The translations under genes were made by a program, and so were the position numbers. From Thermodesulfobacteriota bacterium (GTDB taxonomy: Bacteria; Desulfobacterota; Binatia; Bin18), in contig OZ219926.1 in assembly GCA_964291405.2 (NCBI GenBank), forward strand, positions 4,160,001 to 4,224,000: a DNA stretch of 64,000 bases, in the 5' to 3' direction. Of the stretch, positions 20,579-36,869 are shown in pieces; position 1 is the first letter of the stretch; each line of letters starts with the position of its first letter. Under the pieces are notes generated by a model. That model saw nothing but the letters and a program-made list of their open reading frames with translations. It ran no database searches and had not been told where the DNA came from.

Positions 20579-20941
20579 CTATGAAGAAGTGGGCGAAGCC
20601 GGGCGGATGCGTAATCTGCCTGGCTCGGCGGTAATGATCGCTCCAGCTTCCAGATCCGTACCGTGCGTAGCGAGTACTTGAATACAGGCTGCTGCTTGTT
20701 GACGTGCCGAGAGATTGACAAGGCGAAGAATGCCTGAGTGGCGCTGGCCGCGGACAATAACAAGTTCGCCAAAGTCCTTGTCTAAGGTCACGAGGATACG
20801 ACGGTCATGGAAAGCTCGACTGAGAATTTCTTCATCGCCTGGGTCTTCATCCCACTCGCCCGCCCACAAGACATCATGGCCAGCGGCTCTCATATCCTGG
20901 CGGACTCCGCCCCAGACACAGCTATCAAGCAGAAGCCTCAC
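20579..20941 (-). CDS. DUF5615-family PIN-like toxin
   Basis: LLLDSC, DEEIL, ILVTLDKDFGEL, HSGIL; GTGA overlap with the DUF433 gene. Confidence 0.88.
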   Translation of the reverse strand: MRLLLDSCVWGGVRQDMRAAGHDVLWAGEWDEDPGDEEILSRAFHDRRILVTLDKDFGELVIVRGQRHSGILRLVNLSARQQAAACIQVLATHGTDLEAGAIITAEPGRLRIRPASPTSS

Positions 20942-28128: not shown

Positions 28129-29451
28129 ATGAATCTTTTCCTCATTTTTCAGTACGGCCTTATCGGCGCGTTTGTCGCCCTGTTGGCGACTTTCCTGTTG
28201 GTCATGGTCTCCGACAGTGTGGAAGGGCATGTTTCCCACCTTTTGGGTTTATACACGAAAAACCCAATCCTGAAATTTCTCGGCATCGGCATGGGCGGCG
28301 TGCTGCTCGCTCTGCAAGCCTTGATGTCTTACAAACGGGCCAAGGCACTGGAGGACACCGCGAACGCCCAGGCTGAAGCAGCGAAGGCACAGGCCAAGGC
28401 CACGGAGGAACAGGCAAAGGCCAACGAGAATACCGAACAGGGGCAGCGGCAGGAACGCCTGAAAAACGCCATAGAGCATCTTGGACACGCCTCGGACTCC
28501 GTGCGTTTGGGCGGGGCTTATGAACTGTTCCATCTGGCGCAAGATACGAAAGACTTGCGTCAGACTGTCCTGGACATTCTCTGCGCCCATATCCGACGGA
28601 CGACGGGCGAGGCTGCGTATCGGGAAAAGTATAAGTTCGAACCTTCAGAAGAAGTCCAAAGCTTATTGACCCTGCTGTTCGTGCAGGAGCGTGAAATCTT
28701 CAAAGGTCTCCGTATCAACCTGAAGGGAAGCTGGCTGAATGGGGCTGATCTCAGAGAAGCACGTTTAGCCAGAGCCATTCTGACCAATGCGTATCTGCAA
28801 AGAGCCCTGCTTCAAGGGGCGCACCTGCAAAGGACCGGCCTTGCCGTGGCGCACCTAGAAGAAGCAGTTCTCACCAAGGCTTGGCTACACGGAGCCGATC
28901 TTCTTGAGACATACATGCAAGGAGCTGCTCTTCAATCTGTGCGGTTGTATGGAGCTGATCTTCGTGGGGTGAAAATGCAAGGAGCTTATCTACCCGACGC
29001 GCATCTGCAGGGAGCCTTTCTTCAGTCTGTGTCGCTGGAGGGGGCGACCCTTTCGAGGGCCCGTCTACAAGGAACTGGTATTTCCTTCATATATCTGCAA
29101 GGAGCCTCTCTTAATGAGGCGAAGCTGCACGGGGCAGGAACTGATAATTGGTCTTCTTCGATGCCTTTTGCAGAGCGCATCAAGAGGTCAATTGGCAAAG
29201 AAAGTAATCTGTCGAGCGTATTTTTTGGAGGTATAGGCCGGGGAGGTGTAGACCTCCTTGTCGAAGGCTTGTCTGATAAAAAAGCAAGAATACTTCGAGA
29301 GATACTGAGGCCACATATTGACCAGCCAGTAAGCCACGAATTACCGGAAAATAGCGGTGCCATCACCGGAGCCTACACAGCCAAAGAAGCAGAACAATGG
29401 ATTGCCGAATACAACGAAGCCATGTCAGAAGTACCTGAGGGCGATAGCTGA
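28129..29451 (+). CDS. Membrane-anchored pentapeptide-repeat protein
   Basis: Two N-terminal TM helices, a coiled coil, AIEHLG..SVRLGGAYEL, then about 25-30 A(D/H)Lxx pentapeptides. Confidence 0.88.
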   Translation: MNLFLIFQYGLIGAFVALLATFLLVMVSDSVEGHVSHLLGLYTKNPILKFLGIGMGGVLLALQALMSYKRAKALEDTANAQAEAAKAQAKATEEQAKANENTEQGQRQERLKNAIEHLGHASDSVRLGGAYELFHLAQDTKDLRQTVLDILCAHIRRTTGEAAYREKYKFEPSEEVQSLLTLLFVQEREIFKGLRINLKGSWLNGADLREARLARAILTNAYLQRALLQGAHLQRTGLAVAHLEEAVLTKAWLHGADLLETYMQGAALQSVRLYGADLRGVKMQGAYLPDAHLQGAFLQSVSLEGATLSRARLQGTGISFIYLQGASLNEAKLHGAGTDNWSSSMPFAERIKRSIGKESNLSSVFFGGIGRGGVDLLVEGLSDKKARILREILRPHIDQPVSHELPENSGAITGAYTAKEAEQWIAEYNEAMSEVPEGDS

Positions 29452-30986
29452 TGCCCACCCTCCACTGGCTCACCCGAGACAAAGACCTCCGCACCGCCTC
29501 CTGCGTGCCGTATCGGCTGTTGGAAGAAGCGCCTGACCTGTCGGCAGGGGAACCGGACACGAGCAATATCCTGATTCAGGGCGACAACCTGGAAGCGCTC
29601 AAGGCGTTGCTGCCGTTCTACGCCGGGCGGGTGAAGTGCATCTATATCGACCCGCCGTACAACACGCACTCCGCCTTCGAGCATTACGACGACAGCCTCG
29701 AACACACGCAATGGCTGGCGATGATGTGGCCACGCCTCGAATTATTGAGAGAGTTCATGACGGATGAAGGGTCAATCTGGATCAATATTGACGATGACGA
29801 GGGACACTATCTCAAGATCATTGCTGACGAAATCTATGGCCGAAGAAATTTCATCGTTAACTGTCTTTGGCAAAAGAGAACGTCGCCCGACGGAAGGATA
29901 AATATGGGCGATGCTCATGACCATATCTTTGTCTATGGCAGTCAGACGACAAGAGACAGTTTCAACAACCTGGCATTAACGGAGGAACAGCGGAGTTTGT
30001 ACAAGAACCCTGATAACGACTTACGTGGCCCGTGGGTTTCTACGGACTTCACTGCTCAGGGTTGGCGGCCGAATCAGATGTATGAAATCGTCACTCCCGC
30101 CGGCGTGCGATATTCTCCACCAGAGGGCCGGTGTTGGGCTAATGTCGAAGAGAATTTTACCCGTCTGCGTAATCAAGGGCGGATATGGTTTGGAAAGGAT
30201 GGCAGCTCTCGGCCACGTGTAAAAAACTATCTGTCGGAGGCAGAAGGGGTGAAATCCTGGAGTTGGTGGGCCAACAGAGAAGTTGGTCATAATCAGGAAG
30301 CCAAGAAAGAAATCAACGCTCTGTTTGGGGCATTGAACGCCTTCGACACTCCAAAACCCGAACGTCTCATCCAACGTATTCTTCACATTGCCACCAACCC
30401 CGGCGACCTGATACTCGACTCCTTCCTCGGCTCCGGTACCACGGCGGCAGTCGCCCACAAGATGGGCAGGCGCTACATCGGCATTGAGATGGGCGAGCAC
30501 GCGGTGACGCATTGCGTACCCCGCTTGCGAAAGGTCATTGACGGCGAGCAGGGCGGCATCTCAAAAAGTGTCGGTTGGCAGGGTGGGGGCGGGTTCCGTT
30601 TCTACCGGCTCGGGCCACCGGTGTTTGATGAGGAGGGACAGATTCGAGCGGACATTCGCTTTCCGGTGCTGGCTGCCCATGTCTGGTTCAGCGAGACCGG
30701 GCGTCCGTGGAATGGGAGCGGGGATTCGCCCTTCCTGGGTCTGCACGACGGCCACGCCTATGCGCTGCTGTACAACGGCATCCTGGGCGATAGGCGCCCG
30801 AATGGTGGCAACGTGCTGACACGGGCCACACTTGCTACGATTCGGGAAGAGATTGCGCGCAAGCATGCGCGTTTCAACGGGCCGATGACGGTCTATGGCG
30901 AACAGTCGCGCCTGGCCTCTGCTACTTTGGAGCGGGACGGCATTACCTTCAAGCAAATGCCGTATGATGTGAAGGCAAGAACCTGA
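29451..30986 (+). CDS. mod: Type III R-M modification methyltransferase (beta class)
   Basis: LIQGDNLEALK, YIDPPYN, central TRD, TPKPERL, DSFLGSGTT. Confidence 0.92.
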   Translation: MPTLHWLTRDKDLRTASCVPYRLLEEAPDLSAGEPDTSNILIQGDNLEALKALLPFYAGRVKCIYIDPPYNTHSAFEHYDDSLEHTQWLAMMWPRLELLREFMTDEGSIWINIDDDEGHYLKIIADEIYGRRNFIVNCLWQKRTSPDGRINMGDAHDHIFVYGSQTTRDSFNNLALTEEQRSLYKNPDNDLRGPWVSTDFTAQGWRPNQMYEIVTPAGVRYSPPEGRCWANVEENFTRLRNQGRIWFGKDGSSRPRVKNYLSEAEGVKSWSWWANREVGHNQEAKKEINALFGALNAFDTPKPERLIQRILHIATNPGDLILDSFLGSGTTAAVAHKMGRRYIGIEMGEHAVTHCVPRLRKVIDGEQGGISKSVGWQGGGGFRFYRLGPPVFDEEGQIRADIRFPVLAAHVWFSETGRPWNGSGDSPFLGLHDGHAYALLYNGILGDRRPNGGNVLTRATLATIREEIARKHARFNGPMTVYGEQSRLASATLERDGITFKQMPYDVKART

Positions 30987-31054
30987 TTGGTTGACGAGCG
31001 TCAGGACAGTTTGTACCTGATTGTCAGATCATGACTCCACAGGAGGACAGAGGA

Positions 31055-31246
31055 ATGCAGCAGACCTTTCGAGTGAAAGCTGTGTGGGACGCTGAGGCAG
31101 AAGTGTTCTACTCTGAAAGCGATATCGAGGGCTTGCACATTGAGGCGGCTACCCTTCGACTCTGCTCAGGACAGGCCCTGGATGAATTTGAAGCAATCAT
31201 GCTGGACGCAGCGCCTGAACTCATCATGGTGAACCATCGTACTTGA
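31055..31246 (+). CDS. DUF1902 (HicB-like) protein with an in-frame 8-aa repeat-derived insertion; possibly truncated at the C-terminus
   Basis: VKAVWDAEAEVFYSESDIEGLHIEAAT[LRLCSGQA]LDEFE...PELI..NH. Confidence 0.75.
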   Translation: MQQTFRVKAVWDAEAEVFYSESDIEGLHIEAATLRLCSGQALDEFEAIMLDAAPELIMVNHRT

Positions 31247-31253
31247 GAGGGCA

Positions 31254-31363
31254 GGTCCTTCGACTTCGCTTGCGCTACGCTCAGGACGAATGGGTGCTTA
31301 GGACCGCCGGTCATGCTGAGCGTAGCCCCGGAGGGGCGAAGTCGAAGCACGCTCAGGACGAAC
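31254..31363. repeat. Inverted doublet of CTTCGACTTCGC-x-GCTACGCTCAG repeats upstream of the GIY-YIG gene
   Basis: Forward unit 31254-31290, reverse unit 31311-31350, partial GCTCAGGACGAAC at 31351-31363. Confidence 0.85.
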
Positions 31364-31380
31364 GTGTGGGCGAGGGTGCC

Positions 31381-31677
31381 ATGAGTTTCTGGGTCTACAT
31401 TTTACGCTGTGGAGACGGGTCCTATTACACCGGTCATACGGATGATCTTGAACGCCGTCTTCACCAACATCAGGCCGGGACTTTCGGGGGATACACTTCG
31501 TCCCGGAAACCATTATCCTTGGTCTATTCCTGTCCATTCCCGTCGAGGGAAGAGGCCATGCGAGCGGAACGGCAGATTAAAGGTTGGAGTCGAAAGAAGA
31601 AAGAGGCCATGCTGCGCGGAGACTGGACTGCGGTCAATCGGTTGTCTCGTGGGAAACATAGGCATCAACGGTCGTAA
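31381..31677 (+). CDS. Small GIY-YIG nuclease (YhbQ/UPF0213-like)
   Basis: WVYILRCGDGSYYTGHTDDLERRLHQH...AERQIKGWSRKKK. Confidence 0.92.
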   Translation: MSFWVYILRCGDGSYYTGHTDDLERRLHQHQAGTFGGYTSSRKPLSLVYSCPFPSREEAMRAERQIKGWSRKKKEAMLRGDWTAVNRLSRGKHRHQRS

Positions 31678-31678
31678 T

Positions 31679-31863
31679 GGTCCTTCGACTTCGCTGACGC
31701 TACGCTCAGGACGAACGGCGGGGAGACCGTCGGTCCTGAGCGTAAGGCGCACCGCGCCTGAAGTCGAAGGGCGCTCAGGACGAACGGAACAAAGGCTATT
31801 GGTCCTGAACACCCGCCATTCATGCTGAGCGTAGCCCCAGAGGGGCGGAGTCGAAGCACGCTC
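31679..31863. repeat. Cluster of the same repeats downstream of the GIY-YIG gene
   Basis: Forward unit 31679-31718, reverse unit 31727-31772, partial unit 31773-31787, reverse unit 31819-31863. Confidence 0.85.
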
Positions 31864-31921
31864 GGGATAGGCACAGCACAAGCGCAAGCGAAGGACGAAC
31901 GGGTCTGGAAGAAGACGAGTC

Positions 31922-34549
31922 ATGCAACTGAAGCAGTATCAGGCCGATGCGCTGGCCGTTCTGCGCCGCTTCTTTGAAGAAGCCCGCATGGCCGGGCCGA
32001 GGAATGCCTACGAAACTATTACCAAAGAACCCGAATATGCGGACCGGCTCGGGCGCTATGGCGGAACGTATAGCGCCCCACTCACGGACCTGCCGAACAT
32101 GCCGTACGTCTGCCTGCGTCTGCCGACCGGCGGTGGCAAAACAATCCTGGGCGCTCACGCCGTTGCCGTAGCGCGTGATGCCTGGATAGAGAAAGACTAT
32201 CCGCTGGTCCTGTGGCTGGTGCCGACAAAGACGATTCGTTCGCAAACAGTCGAAGCCCTGAAGAACGCCGGCCACCCGTATCGGCAGGTTCTGGATGAAG
32301 ACTTTGACGGCCGGGTGCGCGTGTTCGATATTGCGGACTTTACCCATATTCGACCGCACGACCTGCGCGACCACTGCTGTATTATAGTCGGCACTATTCA
32401 GACATTGCGGGTGACGAACACCGAGGGCCGTAAGGTCTACGCCCACCACGAGGAAATGGAGCCGCATTTCTCCGGGGCCCAGAATGCTACGCCGGGCCTG
32501 GAGAAAATGGAGGGCGGCGTCAAGTTTTCCTTCGCCAACCTGCTGCACATCCACCGCCCGCTGATGATCGTGGATGAGGCCCACAACGCGGTAACCGGTC
32601 TGACTCGCGAGATGCAAACGCGGGTCAATCCGTGCGCGATTATCGAGTTCACCGCCACTCCTCAGCCCAAGTCGAATATCCTGTACAGCGTCTCCGCCCT
32701 GGAACTCAAACGCGAGGACATGATCAAGTTGCCGATCATGCTGTCCGAGCACGGCACCTGGCAAAACGCGGTCAACGGCGCGATTGCGAAGCGGGCGTCT
32801 CTGGCAGAAGCCGCCAAACGAGACGCCGCCTACCTCCGGCCCATCGTCCTGTTCCAGGCTCAGAAGAAAAATCAAGAAGTTACGGTCGAAGCGCTGAAAG
32901 AACATCTGACGGATGTTGAGCACATTCCCGCAAGCGTAATCGCCATTGCTACCGGCGACCAGCGGGAACTGGACGGTATCGACCTGTTCGATCCACATTG
33001 TCCGATTGAATACGTCATCACCGTCGAAGCCCTGAAAGAAGGCTGGGACTGTTCCTTCGCCTATGTGTTTTGCTCGGTCTCGCGTATTCACAGTGCGACA
33101 GATGTGGAACAGCTCTTGGGCCGCGTGCTGCGCATGCCCTACGCCAAGCGGCGTAAAGTTACCGATCTGAACAAGGCGTATGCCTACCTGTCCGAGCCGT
33201 CCTCGGGAGCATCCGCGCGGGCATTGACCGATAAGCTCGTTGCAATGGGATTTGAGGAAGATGAGGCGCGTGACAACATTGAGCCGGTACAGGGAGAGTT
33301 GGGAGGCGAGGACGGTCTTTTCGGTCTGCGCGACCAGCCGCCACCATCATTCCGGCATACGCTCTCGGTGACGCCAGAGGCGCTGTCAGCCTTGAAGCAG
33401 ACACAACGAGACGGTGTGACGGTGCGCGAGACTGGTGGCGGGAAAGTTGAGATCGAGATTGTTGGCCCTGTGGACGACGCTCTGGAAACGGTCATCCGTG
33501 CAGCGGTCCCGGAGGCGGAACATGGGCGGATTGATGAGTCCTTTGGGGAGTATCGGAAGCTTCTCTCGCCCGCCGAACGTGGTGAGAAGTTCGACGTGCC
33601 GCGTCTCATGGCGGAACTCCAAGGAGAGCTTGAGTTCGCCGATACCGACGTGTTCATGGAAGATCACGATTGGTCGCTGCTCAACCACTCGTCGCACTTG
33701 GATGAGCATGAATTTACGGTCCGTGAGACATCACGCAGTTTTGAGATCGACATTGACGGCAGGCACGTCACCTATCAGTTCGCCGGCGAGGAGGAGCAAC
33801 TCGCGCTGAACGTAGACGTAGCAGGCTGGACGCCTGAAGCTCTGGTGCTGTGGCTTGATCGACAGGTGCGTCAGCCCGACATCAGGCAGGGTGAATTGAT
33901 CAAATGGCTGTCCGAACTCGTTGGCCATCTAATAAACAGACGCGCCCTGCATATCGCTGCACTCATGCGGTGTAAGTTTATCCTGGCACGGAAGCTACGC
34001 GACAAAATTAGCGCCATTCGTCGGCAGGAACGAAAGAGTACCTATCAACAGCGTCTTTTTGCGCCAGAGGCAAAAGTCGAAATATCCTTCGACGATGCCT
34101 TCTCATTCAAGGCCGGGATGTATCAGGATCAGCGGCGATACCGGGGGCGCTGGGAGCCGGGGAAGCATTTTTTAGGTTCAGACCACGTTCCGGCTTTCGA
34201 CGGCGCGGACGATGGTGAAGAAGTCCAGTGCGCCCAGGAGCTCGACAGCCTGCCCGGCGTGAAATACTGGATTCGCAATGTAGCCCGCCACCCGGAGTCG
34301 TTCTGGCTGCCAACCGCAACGGACAAGTTTTACCCTGACCTCGTAGCACTGCTGAACGACGGACGGCTGCTCGTTGTCGAATATAAGGGGGCACATATCG
34401 CTGATGGAGCGGATACCGCAGAGAAACGGACCATCGGCGAACTGTGGCAACAAAAAAGCAACGGCAAGGGCCTTTTCCTCGTTGTTGAAAGACTCCTCAA
34501 CGGCCGGGACGTATACCAGCAGTTGATAGAGAAAACTGGTGCTACCTGA
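31922..34549 (+). CDS. res: Type III R-M restriction subunit (SF2 helicase + PD-(D/E)xK nuclease)
   Basis: LPTGGGKT, DEAH, LKEGWD, QLLGRVLR, C-terminal FYPDLV...VEYKG. Confidence 0.92.
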   Translation: MQLKQYQADALAVLRRFFEEARMAGPRNAYETITKEPEYADRLGRYGGTYSAPLTDLPNMPYVCLRLPTGGGKTILGAHAVAVARDAWIEKDYPLVLWLVPTKTIRSQTVEALKNAGHPYRQVLDEDFDGRVRVFDIADFTHIRPHDLRDHCCIIVGTIQTLRVTNTEGRKVYAHHEEMEPHFSGAQNATPGLEKMEGGVKFSFANLLHIHRPLMIVDEAHNAVTGLTREMQTRVNPCAIIEFTATPQPKSNILYSVSALELKREDMIKLPIMLSEHGTWQNAVNGAIAKRASLAEAAKRDAAYLRPIVLFQAQKKNQEVTVEALKEHLTDVEHIPASVIAIATGDQRELDGIDLFDPHCPIEYVITVEALKEGWDCSFAYVFCSVSRIHSATDVEQLLGRVLRMPYAKRRKVTDLNKAYAYLSEPSSGASARALTDKLVAMGFEEDEARDNIEPVQGELGGEDGLFGLRDQPPPSFRHTLSVTPEALSALKQTQRDGVTVRETGGGKVEIEIVGPVDDALETVIRAAVPEAEHGRIDESFGEYRKLLSPAERGEKFDVPRLMAELQGELEFADTDVFMEDHDWSLLNHSSHLDEHEFTVRETSRSFEIDIDGRHVTYQFAGEEEQLALNVDVAGWTPEALVLWLDRQVRQPDIRQGELIKWLSELVGHLINRRALHIAALMRCKFILARKLRDKISAIRRQERKSTYQQRLFAPEAKVEISFDDAFSFKAGMYQDQRRYRGRWEPGKHFLGSDHVPAFDGADDGEEVQCAQELDSLPGVKYWIRNVARHPESFWLPTATDKFYPDLVALLNDGRLLVVEYKGAHIADGADTAEKRTIGELWQQKSNGKGLFLVVERLLNGRDVYQQLIEKTGAT

Positions 34550-36205: not shown

Positions 36206-36640
36206 TTACCTGTTGGTTGTTATAAAAGGATTGCGAACCCTCACACTCCCGTACATGCGCGTATGCTGAAAGTCTTCGGAGAGGATTTCGGTCAGTCCGT
36301 AGACTTCCGCGTAGGCCCACAGGTGGGCATCAAACCAGGATAAACCGTACGCTGCCGCACCCCGTAAGGCGGTCCGCAACACAGCTTCATTGGGATAAAG
36401 GGCTCTAAACTGAGCCAGCATTTCTTCTGCCTCGCGTCGCGCATCCGCTGGCTCCAGGAGTTGGACTTCGGGTCTGCCGCGGGTCGTTGCCGTAACGAAC
36501 TCGACAATGGCCTGACTCGGTACTCTGAATACGTTGGATTTGATGCCTTGGCGTAGAATGTCGGTCACAATCCGCTGCTTTTCCGGAAAGCGAGCGTCGT
36601 AACGATAGACCAGGATATTGGTATCAATGAGGACGGGCAC
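36206..36640 (-). CDS. PIN-domain (VapC-like) toxin
   Basis: LIDTNILVY, QAIVEF, LSWFDAHLWAYA, ILSEDF, VRNPF. The GTG start overlaps the antitoxin end. Confidence 0.9.
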   Translation of the reverse strand: MPVLIDTNILVYRYDARFPEKQRIVTDILRQGIKSNVFRVPSQAIVEFVTATTRGRPEVQLLEPADARREAEEMLAQFRALYPNEAVLRTALRGAAAYGLSWFDAHLWAYAEVYGLTEILSEDFQHTRMYGSVRVRNPFITTNR

Positions 36641-36869
36641 GTTGGTACAGGTCTTCGCGCGTCCAGCCACGGCGGTGCGCCCGCTTACGAGGTTCTACCA
36701 GCGATTGGCTCTTACGCTGCCGTGTTGTTGCGGCATCGAACAACTCCAGACGTTCGTTTACGTTGAGCGCGGCGGTTGACATGCCTGTGGTCGGAGGTGG
36801 GACTTGAATGACATCTCCCTCGGCCTCAATAGGAACTCTCCCCCACAATTTACTCGTAATCTTCGCCAT
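36624..36869 (-). CDS. AbrB-type antitoxin with an apparently shortened DNA-binding domain
   Basis: MAKITSKL start and RGWTREDLY tail; the AbrB core looks internally deleted. Confidence 0.7.
   Translation of the reverse strand: MAKITSKLWGRVPIEAEGDVIQVPPPTTGMSTAALNVNERLELFDAATTRQRKSQSLVEPRKRAHRRGWTREDLYQRARPH

Follow-up and report, generated by a model that had tools for sequence, protein, structure and literature searches.

The window (the whole 64-kb stretch of DNA analysed here) contains a small GIY-YIG nuclease gene set amongst palindromic repeats between mod and res, and we put at about 65% the probability that the gene and the repeats are a cognate pair, in which a small GIY-YIG nuclease is matched to hairpin units that flank its gene in inverted orientation and that are sometimes scattered through intergenic regions. 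Across phyla the gene keeps its units and the units keep their orientation; most of the dispersed copies lie outside genes, often as inverted doublets, and even close relatives have gained or lost units. The pair in the window is itself best explained as an old, vertically inherited insertion between mod and res in a Binatia-like genome. The features of this region, in window coordinates, are:

29451..30986, + strand: Type III methyltransferase mod (context; PADLOC MTase_III, full length, E 3.4e-186)
31031..31246, + strand: 71-aa DUF1902 ORF (Pfam), host of the mini-insertion (context, outside the system)
31152..31175, + strand: 24-nt mini-unit CCCTTCGACTCTGCTCAGGACAGG, in frame within the DUF1902 ORF, missing from the syntenic locus L001
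31254..31293 (full copy 31258-31290), + strand: unit 1, long form, left half of the upstream doublet
31304..31350 (full copy 31310-31347), - strand: unit 2, long form, with a GCCCC/GGGGC inner hairpin, gene-proximal upstream
31347..31367, + strand: partial unit, 3' arm GCTCAGGACGAACG, fused to unit 2
31381..31677, + strand: GIY-YIG nuclease gene, assigned to a UPF0213/YhbQ/Slx1-like lineage by Pfam, profile and structure matches
31679..31718 (full copy 31683-31715), + strand: unit 3, gene-proximal downstream
31727..31771 (full copy 31730-31769), - strand: unit 4, with an AGGCGC/GCGCCT inner hairpin, right half of the downstream doublet
31769..31789, + strand: partial unit, 3' arm
31813..31859 (full copy 31819-31856), - strand: unit 5, 91% identical to unit 2 (family D4)
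31884..31904, + strand: degenerate partial unit (family D1), immediately before res
31922..34549, + strand: Type III restriction subunit res (context; PADLOC REase_III, E 2.4e-182)

The nuclease is encoded by an ORF of 98 aa that runs on the forward strand from an ATG at 31381 to a stop at 31677, and its sole domain is the Pfam GIY-YIG domain PF01541 (E 1.6e-19, residues 3-74), which confirms the gene that the original prediction had placed between mod and res. The prediction of a YhbQ-like enzyme is likewise borne out, as E. coli YhbQ is 38% identical to the window protein (E 4e-19) and an alignment profile of the nuclease finds in the PDB the UPF0213 structures 1zg2 (E 3e-22; Bacillus halodurans BH0048) and 1ywl (1.6e-17; Enterococcus faecalis EF2693). 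The same two structures take ranks 1 and 2 when the AlphaFold model of the nuclease (pLDDT 87) is searched with Foldseek, with Slx1 coming after them, and the GIY-YIG core of the model matches the Slx1 and plant HIGLE structures 6seh, 4xm5, 7cq4 and 7wme, whose PDB entry titles concern the cutting of branched or hairpin-like DNA. Five residues, Y6, Y16, R26, E58 and E63, are invariant in an alignment of 25 sequences, and we take a catalytic role for the tyrosine, arginine and glutamate among them from what is known of the GIY-YIG superfamily. Judged from its sequence and model, the window nuclease keeps residues of the catalytic type and is UPF0213/Slx1-like in both fold and sequence. The minimal stand-alone GIY-YIG proteins of UPF0213 are grouped with Slx1 in those passages of PMC1564403 that treat them, where Slx1 is described as carrying a RING domain and working with Slx4. 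In having these two attributes, and no known cognate repeat family, the eukaryotic structure-specific endonuclease Slx1 differs from the single-domain window protein.

Five full copies of the repeat, together with partial ones, had been proposed to surround this gene and all of them are present, the partial copies being three in number and all on the + strand, and the central hairpins vary exactly as first quoted. Only the long form of the unit is carried in the window, where a covariance model of the short unit finds nothing significant. Unit 1 reads CCTTCGAC-TTCGC..GCTAC-GCTCAGGACGAAtGG, unit 2 ends 35 nt before the start codon of the nuclease and the conserved core of unit 3 begins 7 nt past its stop codon. 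The pattern of the 3' arm, with up to 2 mismatches, has 8 matches in the 64-kb window against a shuffled expectation of 0.12, a number that was reached by none of 100 shuffles, and six of the eight lie inside 31275-31834; the 10-mer CTTCGACTTC by itself is weak evidence, with 8 matches against 3.6 expected. Both of the forward/reverse doublets that had been thought able to form stem-loops fold as single-stranded DNA beyond what shuffles achieve, at -31.4 kcal/mol (z -3.8) for the upstream doublet 31254-31367 and -37.7 kcal/mol (z -6.2) for the downstream doublet 31679-31790, and the folding of the third cluster (31806-31905) is no better than that of shuffles (z -1.1 and -0.3). The location first given for the repeat field was correct but its extent was a little too small, as it runs from 31254 to about 31905 with an additional mini-copy at 31152-31175.

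This mini-copy lies within the DUF1902 ORF, between mod and the nuclease gene, to which it adds the residues LRLCSGQA, and CCC is found at both of its junctions. The suspicion of an in-frame insertion adjacent to the nuclease proved right, since the syntenic L001 lacks the 24 nt and there has a continuous Pfam DUF1902 match (profile 2-50), whereas the match in the window ends at the insertion (profile 2-32). L001 in turn carries an extra unit of 44 nt compared with the window, and in another locus, L065, two units have been gained in tandem.

When the units are compared across loci their logo reads CC-TTCGACARGCTCA-GG-RCGAACGG, with an abrupt 3' edge, and the unit forms a hairpin whose loop is conserved and whose stem covaries. 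The stem covariation score of 140 units is 0.344 against 0.164 for shuffles, none of 500 reaching the observed score, and at most 0.141 for slid controls, and the inner stem pairs change type, for example between CG (83) and GC (39). Within the 10-bp stem 65% of cells pair, the outer pairs being weak, and conservation of the unit is far lower in the 5' arm than in the 3' arm. Wobble pairs were considered as a clue to the strand that folds and were dropped, as A-C and G-T cells resemble transition decay in the 5' arm. It was also observed that the unit (CCTTCGACARGCTCAGGRCGAACGG and its long form), the sequence of which is unusually well conserved, breaks metagenome assemblies and that it is translated into protein tails, such as ..PSTSSGRTG.

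The association of repeat and gene was followed in the best 80 of at least 592 matches, with 62-95% identity to the window protein, a set that therefore samples close relatives only and in which the loci are not independent, as L001 to L004 share synteny with the window and a single gene context, nrdR-gene-methyltransferase, is common to the sphingomonad loci. The hosts are Binatia, Nitrospirota, Thermodesulfobacteriota, Alpha-, Beta- and Gammaproteobacteria, Chloroflexota and Verrucomicrobiota. Repeat enrichment in the flanks of homologues had been put forward as a check of the prediction and it is found: by a broader pattern 73 of 81 loci (the 80 and the window) have a unit no more than 200 bp from the gene, with a reverse unit upstream in 53, a forward unit downstream in 61 and both in 43, and visibly diverged variants are present in the eight loci that have no pattern match. 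Counted over the 80 loci, matches to the motif CTCAGGRCGAACGG with no more than 1 mismatch number 6.9 to 8.8 per kb in the 100 bp next to the gene and 0.04 to 0.08 per kb at more than 1 kb from it, so that unit density beside the gene is about 100-fold that further away. The inverted layout is equally clear in these loci, with 47 reverse and 8 forward units in the 100 bp upstream and 52 forward and 18 reverse units in the 100 bp downstream.

A comparison of nuclease and repeat lineages had also been suggested, and here the two agree, as the loop type (TTCG or ARG) tracks protein clades and one subclade of four loci is all TTCG; the protein tree leaves 39 of its 78 inner branches open, and at this poor resolution we make no claim on horizontal transfer. 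Flanking inverted units are kept in relatives from Sphingomonas and Methylobacterium at 58% and 53% identity respectively, and none are found in two plasmid relatives at 40-41% (Legionella lytica and Xanthomonas citri), nor is there an annotated repeat, or space for one, at E. coli yhbQ, which is packed between yhbP and yhbS. The link with the repeat is therefore a property of one subfamily and not of UPF0213 as a whole.

Beyond the immediate flanks, 85 distal units are found in 27 of the 80 loci, the other 53 having none within 10 kb on each side. ORFs contain 28 of these 85 units, although they make up 82% of the bases concerned, and neighbouring units form 97 inverted and 30 direct pairs. 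The genome of Sphingomonas parapaucimobilis has at least 155 unit places spread over 9 replicons, with one gene match detected. In the window no repeat copy was found outside the locus, the best match to the short-form covariance model having an E value of 0.12 and the long-form pattern giving only two 2-mismatch matches, and REP-like dispersal is therefore a feature seen for relatives only. Thus the REP-like character given to the system in the original prediction stands as regards the inverted flanking units and, in some relatives, the extragenic copies, but not as regards dispersal within the window.

Of the other explanations for this arrangement the one that survives best, whilst still unlikely, is that the gene and its inverted terminal units form a very small autonomous transposon of about 400-450 bp, of which the solo units and doublets would be MITE-like derivatives. 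The gene-proximal units are indeed inverted with their sharp edges outward, as terminal inverted repeats would be, and L062, L065 and L071 show high identity all the way from one flanking unit to the other, with a drop outside the upstream one; furthermore the authors who described the Ssn nucleases liken their repeat-gene-repeat layout to that of insertion sequences (PMC11893778). However, the gene is single or low copy, and where a second copy occurs, in 2 of the 80 loci, the paralogues either share 75-82% DNA identity or cannot be aligned, and are therefore not recent copies, the second paralogue of L073 having its own unit variant. The gene context is also kept within lineages, both in the five loci with the order mod-gene-res (the window and L001 to L004) and in the sphingomonads, and the sole junction duplication seen is the CCC beside the 24-nt mini-unit, with no target-site duplication established for the cassette as a whole. 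Insertion sequences and MITEs have near-identical coding copies and target-site duplications, whereas the window-type gene is without either.

Somewhat less probable again is that a free-standing, homing-type endonuclease gene inserted into repeats that were already there, which would make the repeats its target and not its product. That GIY-YIG homing endonucleases exist can be read in parts of PMC1564403, and the gene is always inside the repeat cluster. Against this, the protein, at 98 residues, lacks a separate DNA-binding domain, I-TevI matches the nuclease model only weakly in structure (rank 38, E 1.5), and the position of the gene is conserved with mostly vertical inheritance within families. 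Homing endonucleases of the GIY-YIG type have a separate DNA-binding domain and show presence/absence polymorphism at a defined target, in contrast to the single-domain and syntenic window protein.

In REP/RAYT systems palindromic units stand in inverted orientation around a single-copy gene that is largely vertical, extragenic inverted doublets occur (as REPINs) and each paralogue has its own unit variant, and the window-type system is similar in every one of these features. The two differ in their enzyme, the RAYT being a Y1 HUH tyrosine transposase related to those of IS200/IS605 and the window enzyme a hydrolytic GIY-YIG nuclease, and in their repeat, since REP sequences are species-specific whereas the window-type unit is conserved across phyla. 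The proposal of a RAYT-like layout in which the enzyme is a GIY-YIG protein was therefore sound, given the flanked gene (PF01541) and the inverted units around it. It would seem improbable, by a shade more than in the case of homing, that the repeats were spread by another enzyme located elsewhere, whether a RAYT or an IS200/IS605-type transposase, and merely accumulate beside this gene. REP elements are known to cluster, and such a RAYT could lie elsewhere, the domain scan having covered the ORFs of the window; amongst those 56 ORFs there is no RAYT or transposase domain by Pfam. An enrichment of this size, in a fixed orientation and across unrelated gene contexts and phyla, argues against a foreign enzyme, as does a loop type that follows the protein clade.

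More doubtful still is the idea that the hairpins work solely as RNA and not at the level of DNA, for example by terminating transcription, stabilising mRNA or regulating the nuclease gene. Units do occur in 5' and 3' untranslated regions, where they sometimes run into the 3' end of the ORF, and in some AT-rich loci a T run follows the unit. Yet neither the window region nor any of 10 short loci gave a credible match to an Rfam family, units are found in either orientation and, far from the gene, as scattered inverted doublets, the Ssn protein does not interact with RNA (PMC11893778), and a regulatory element would leave at least 155 copies in one genome unexplained. Finally, it is hard to credit that the nuclease serves the surrounding Type III restriction-modification system as an accessory component, as the order mod-gene-res might suggest, when the other 76 loci have no DNA match to the mod or res of the window, the flanks read in some of them show nrdR, a SpoU-type methyltransferase or dnaG instead, and the nuclease protein has no PADLOC match. 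As a separate observation on gene context, the nuclease ORF is apparently continuous with the downstream methyltransferase in 9 alphaproteobacterial loci; in RefSeq the two are overlapping genes in Sphingomonas parapaucimobilis.

The claim of a novel nuclease-repeat system holds in so far as the lineage looks undescribed but was overstated, as a sister system, Ssn, is already in print (PMC11893778), and besides that paper no literature was found on GIY-YIG genes with REP-like repeats. Those papers naming both GIY-YIG and RAYT that were inspected proved irrelevant. Ssn nucleases are proteins of about 94 aa with a single GIY-YIG domain of CDD family cd10448, and their genes lie between NTS/SRM hairpin repeats, which number in the hundreds (Chenal et al., Nat Commun 2025, PMC11893778). 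The protein binds the flanking hairpin repeats and cuts them solely as single-stranded DNA, and its demonstrated activity is a site-specific ssDNA cleavage that modulates transformation, not transposition of the repeat; the authors list Slx1 as a separate family and also draw a parallel with REP/RAYT (PMC11893778). Ssn and the window-type system have in common a small single-domain GIY-YIG protein (about 94-98 aa), a repeat-gene-repeat layout with hairpins of 20-50 nt on both sides that are mostly extragenic, and repeats that can reach hundreds of copies with one or a few copies of the gene per genome.

There are nevertheless differences. The nearest characterised relatives of the window protein are UPF0213 proteins and Slx1, and Ssn is defined as cd10448. 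The authors' SRM pattern has no match in positions 30900-32000 of the window and none in five extra loci (L081 to L085), and only 3 of 81 loci have a match 300 bp or less from the gene. Methylocaldum marinum (P0038) and Thiocapsa imhoffii have relatives that are respectively 71% and 67% identical to the window protein, and both species are scored NO on all four homologue criteria (Supplementary Data 4, PMC11893778), with no SsnA/cd10448 homologue, defined there by cd10448 or by tblastn to N. meningitidis SsnA at E < 1e-10, and no SRM enrichment. Three sphingomonad species that carry the window-type family were scored YES for Ssn, which another gene could explain. The window-type system looks like a second, undescribed lineage of Ssn-type nuclease/repeat systems. 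Rickettsia palindromic elements are short palindromes of about 100-150 bp that insert in frame into coding genes, and in entering genes in this manner they resemble the 24-nt insertion in the DUF1902 ORF, although they are longer. Rickettsia is amongst the SRM-rich genomes (PMC11893778), and these elements may therefore belong to the Ssn system and not to the window-type one.

As to how a cognate pair would function, we would anticipate that the protein recognises the conserved loop TTCGAC..GCTCA together with the 3' tail CGAACGG, and that this recognition takes place on the extruded hairpin form of the unit, most probably while the DNA is single-stranded. By analogy with the Ssn/NTS system and the structure-specific nuclease Slx1 it would then cut near the unit, the sharp outer edge of which may mark a boundary of recognition or cutting; the binding, strand preference and cutting that we infer for the window-type nuclease all draw on such analogies. 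More speculatively, the cuts may drive the spread and turnover of units. A bolder proposal, which we consider possible though distinctly less probable than the pairing itself, is that a UPF0213/Slx1-like branch gained its hairpin-repeat partnership independently of Ssn and that the nuclease both cuts the hairpins and drives the copying of discrete units of 24-48 nt to new sites, some of them in frame within genes. GIY-YIG enzymes are hydrolytic nucleases for which we know of no strand-transfer chemistry, and a role for one in the insertion of units would, to our knowledge, be without precedent. If true, it would mean mobility by means of a hydrolytic nuclease with no transposase and would provide the first function for part of UPF0213.

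Ssn enzymes are under development as site-specific cutters of ssDNA (PMC11893778), and a second family with a different, well-defined recognition element would broaden that toolbox. The 24-nt in-frame insertion shows that units are able to remodel coding sequences. If the pairing is confirmed, the partnership of a very small GIY-YIG nuclease and a hairpin repeat of its own would not be limited to Ssn (cd10448) but would recur in UPF0213/YhbQ, a lineage that is still without a defined function.

The GIY-YIG gene that the original prediction had placed between mod and res is present, and where at least seven flanking repeat copies had been claimed (five full and at least two partial) there are five full and three partial. 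The features of the locus are as follows:

29451-30986, Type III methyltransferase, full-length, upstream of the GIY-YIG gene
31031-31246, DUF1902 ORF, 71 residues, between methyltransferase and GIY-YIG gene
31258-31290, + strand, full repeat copy
31310-31347, - strand, full repeat copy
31347-31367, partial repeat copy
31381-31677, + strand, GIY-YIG gene, 98 residues, single GIY-YIG domain (Pfam PF01541, E 1.6e-19)
31683-31715, + strand, full repeat copy
31730-31769, - strand, full repeat copy
31769-31789, partial repeat copy
31819-31856, - strand, full repeat copy
31884-31904, partial repeat copy
31922-34549, Type III restriction subunit, full-length, downstream of the GIY-YIG gene

The 64-kb window has 8 matches to the 3' arm pattern where 0.12 are expected, 6 of the 8 being at the GIY-YIG locus, and no further repeat copies, long form or short form, were found elsewhere in the 64 kb. 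Single strands of the two doublets fold well (z -3.8 and -6.2), in keeping with the stem-loops predicted for them, and a third repeat cluster at the locus does not. The window unit is the long form of a common element, CCTTCGAC-TTCGC[hairpin]GCTAC-GCTCAGGACGAACGG, with a variable extra hairpin inserted into the loop, and this form is common to the window and its Binatia relatives. Immediately 5' of mod is a gene for a 440-aa pentapeptide-repeat protein (28129-29451, +), and the related loci L001-L004 have DNA matching parts of this gene, which suggests that it travels with the Type III system. A PIN-domain ORF (36206-36670, -) and a DUF5615 ORF (20579-20941, -), possible toxin-antitoxin components, share the region with the restriction-modification genes.

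An alignment profile of the protein matched the PDB entries for two UPF0213 proteins, BH0048 (E 3e-22) and EF2693, and both are again the best structural matches of the AlphaFold model (pLDDT 87), followed by Slx1 and HIGLE. The protein is 38% identical to E. coli YhbQ, and 25 relatives all retain Y6, Y16, R26, E58 and E63.

One scan of species-representative genomes gave at least 592 loci encoding relatives, the best 80 of which (62-95% identity) were kept, and the expectation that repeats would flank homologous genes holds in these. Their flanks are almost everywhere alike, with a reverse copy, CCGTTCGYCCTGAGCYTGTCGAAGG, upstream and a forward copy, CCTTCGACARGCTCAGGRCGAACGG, downstream. The density of the 14-nt core is 6.9-8.8 per kb within 100 bp of the gene compared to 0.04-0.08 per kb beyond 1 kb, the cores within 100 bp being 47 reverse and 8 forward upstream, and 52 forward and 18 reverse downstream. 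With a broader pattern that also accepts long-form units, and counting the window, a unit lies within 200 bp of the gene in 73 of 81 loci (reverse unit upstream in 53, forward unit downstream in 61, both in 43); the eight without a match are seven alphaproteobacterial loci and L080, and those of their flanks that were read have diverged versions of the unit. The ORF often extends into the downstream unit, which is why relatives have protein tails such as ..HPSTSSGRTG. Loop type tracks protein clades, and a second paralogue in L073 has its own unit variant. The link fades with distance from the window protein: inverted units still flank the gene in plasmid-borne relatives at 58% and 53% identity, two relatives of about 40% identity lack them and around E. 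coli yhbQ there is no space for such units.

Some loci have peculiarities of their own. A 53% identity relative in Methylobacterium bullatum (L082:1440-1930) has a different unit, ..CCTTCGAGGCC[hairpin]GCACCTCAGGATGAGG.., in reversed orientation, forward upstream and reverse downstream. L004, labelled Nitrospirales, is syntenic with Binatia loci at 71-80% DNA identity, and L033, a contig of only 1.7 kb labelled Nitrososphaera, sits in an archaeal bin and has a bacterial-type gene. Misbinning or transfer could explain either locus. A run of N breaks the repeat array just 3' of the gene in L009 (10290-10520) and many metagenome contigs encoding relatives are only 0.4-3 kb long, which points to these repeats as places where assemblies break.

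The loop TTCGACARGCTCA and the 3' tail CGAACGG show 82-100% conservation within 246 short units, the variable R position excepted, and conservation stops abruptly after the final GG, whilst the 5' arm is just 40-74% conserved. Across 140 distinct units a 10-bp stem over the loop pairs in 65% of cells versus 54% in shuffles, with a covariation score of 0.344 versus 0.164 (0 of 500 shuffles reach it; slid controls give at most 0.141) that comes mainly from four inner, type-switching pairs (CG 83/GC 39; UA 61/CG 48). Conservation and covariation therefore describe a short stem of free sequence closing a fixed-sequence loop with a fixed tail after it, the combination that a protein reading the hairpin and its adjacent bases would need; that the hairpins act instead at the RNA level is less likely. 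In the pair flanking the gene the sharp unit edges point outward. A sub-variant ending CTCAGGACAGGC in place of CTCAGGACGAACGG occurs at window 31152-31178, L004:10300-10330 and L064:9940-9975; this form is the one inserted in the DUF1902 ORF and recurs adjoining the gene in other loci. In L046 (5700-16800) stem classes CCC..GGG and TGG..CCA alternate within inverted doublets, so that each doublet can adopt either two small hairpins or a single long one containing a 3-nt mismatch.

Units are also dispersed, with 85 lying at distances above 1 kb from the gene in 27 of the 80 loci; only 28 of these are inside ORFs, though ORFs make up 82% of that sequence. Adjacent units form 97 inverted and 30 direct pairs, and dense intergenic doublets occur in L006, L008 and L046. 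The local doublet of Sphingomonas parapaucimobilis YK209 has at least 155 matches, which lie on 9 replicons, and a protein search of the strain's records gives one GIY-YIG gene. Spread of the units by another enzyme is considered less likely. Unit turnover is seen in the predicted in-frame mini-insertion, which is real (24 nt in the DUF1902 ORF, CCC at both junctions, Pfam match interrupted, absent from L001), in one extra complete 44-nt unit in L001 and in two extra units in tandem in L065.

The gene itself looks stable from its contexts, mod-gene-res being common to L001-L004 and nrdR-gene-methyltransferase to the sphingomonads, with a second copy in just 2 of 80 loci, the paralogues diverged. 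A role as accessory of the Type III restriction system, a homing endonuclease gene settled within pre-existing repeats and a tiny transposon are each less likely. No transposase or RAYT domain was found among the 56 window ORFs scanned. In nine alphaproteobacterial loci (L017, L023, L036, L037, L048, L050, L054, L067, L073) the GIY-YIG frame stays open through the repeat into a SpoU-type RNA methyltransferase gene, giving apparent run-on ORFs of about 270-390 codons (gene start at about 10001 or locus-specific); RefSeq has two genes with a 4-nt overlap in S. parapaucimobilis (L081), and one source names a 97-aa Methylocaldum relative 'tRNA/rRNA methyltransferase SpoU'.

The only literature found on small GIY-YIG genes with REP-like repeats is Chenal et al. 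2025 (PMC11893778). In that paper, SsnA is a 94-residue single-domain GIY-YIG protein (cd10448) whose gene lies between NTS/SRM hairpin repeats that number in the hundreds, it cleaves only single-stranded DNA, adjoining the repeat, and modulates transformation in Neisseria, and the authors themselves draw the comparison with REP/RAYT. The concept is therefore already known, and the novelty originally proposed is reduced to a pair that appears not to fit the published Ssn definition, judged by the SRM pattern and the authors' genome scores. The SRM pattern has no match at the window locus and matches near the gene in just 3 of 81 loci of the family. The table of PMC11893778 scores Methylocaldum marinum and Thiocapsa imhoffii as without an SsnA or cd10448 homologue and not SRM-enriched, yet the former encodes a protein (P0038) 71% identical to that of the window and the latter one (L028) at 67%. 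Against this separation, three sphingomonad species carrying the family are Ssn-positive in the same table, which may reflect a separate ssnA gene.

The feature is real, the original observation confirmed and its interpretation as a nuclease-repeat system supported in part: association, orientation, hairpin covariation, extragenic dispersal in relatives and unit turnover are observed, whilst binding, cutting and spreading are inferred. The best-supported explanation is that nuclease and hairpin repeat form a cognate pair, which would work like Ssn/NTS but within the UPF0213/Slx1-like lineage and with its own repeat; the protein would bind the unit hairpin, prefer single strands, cut at a putative site nearby and may have a part in spreading the units.
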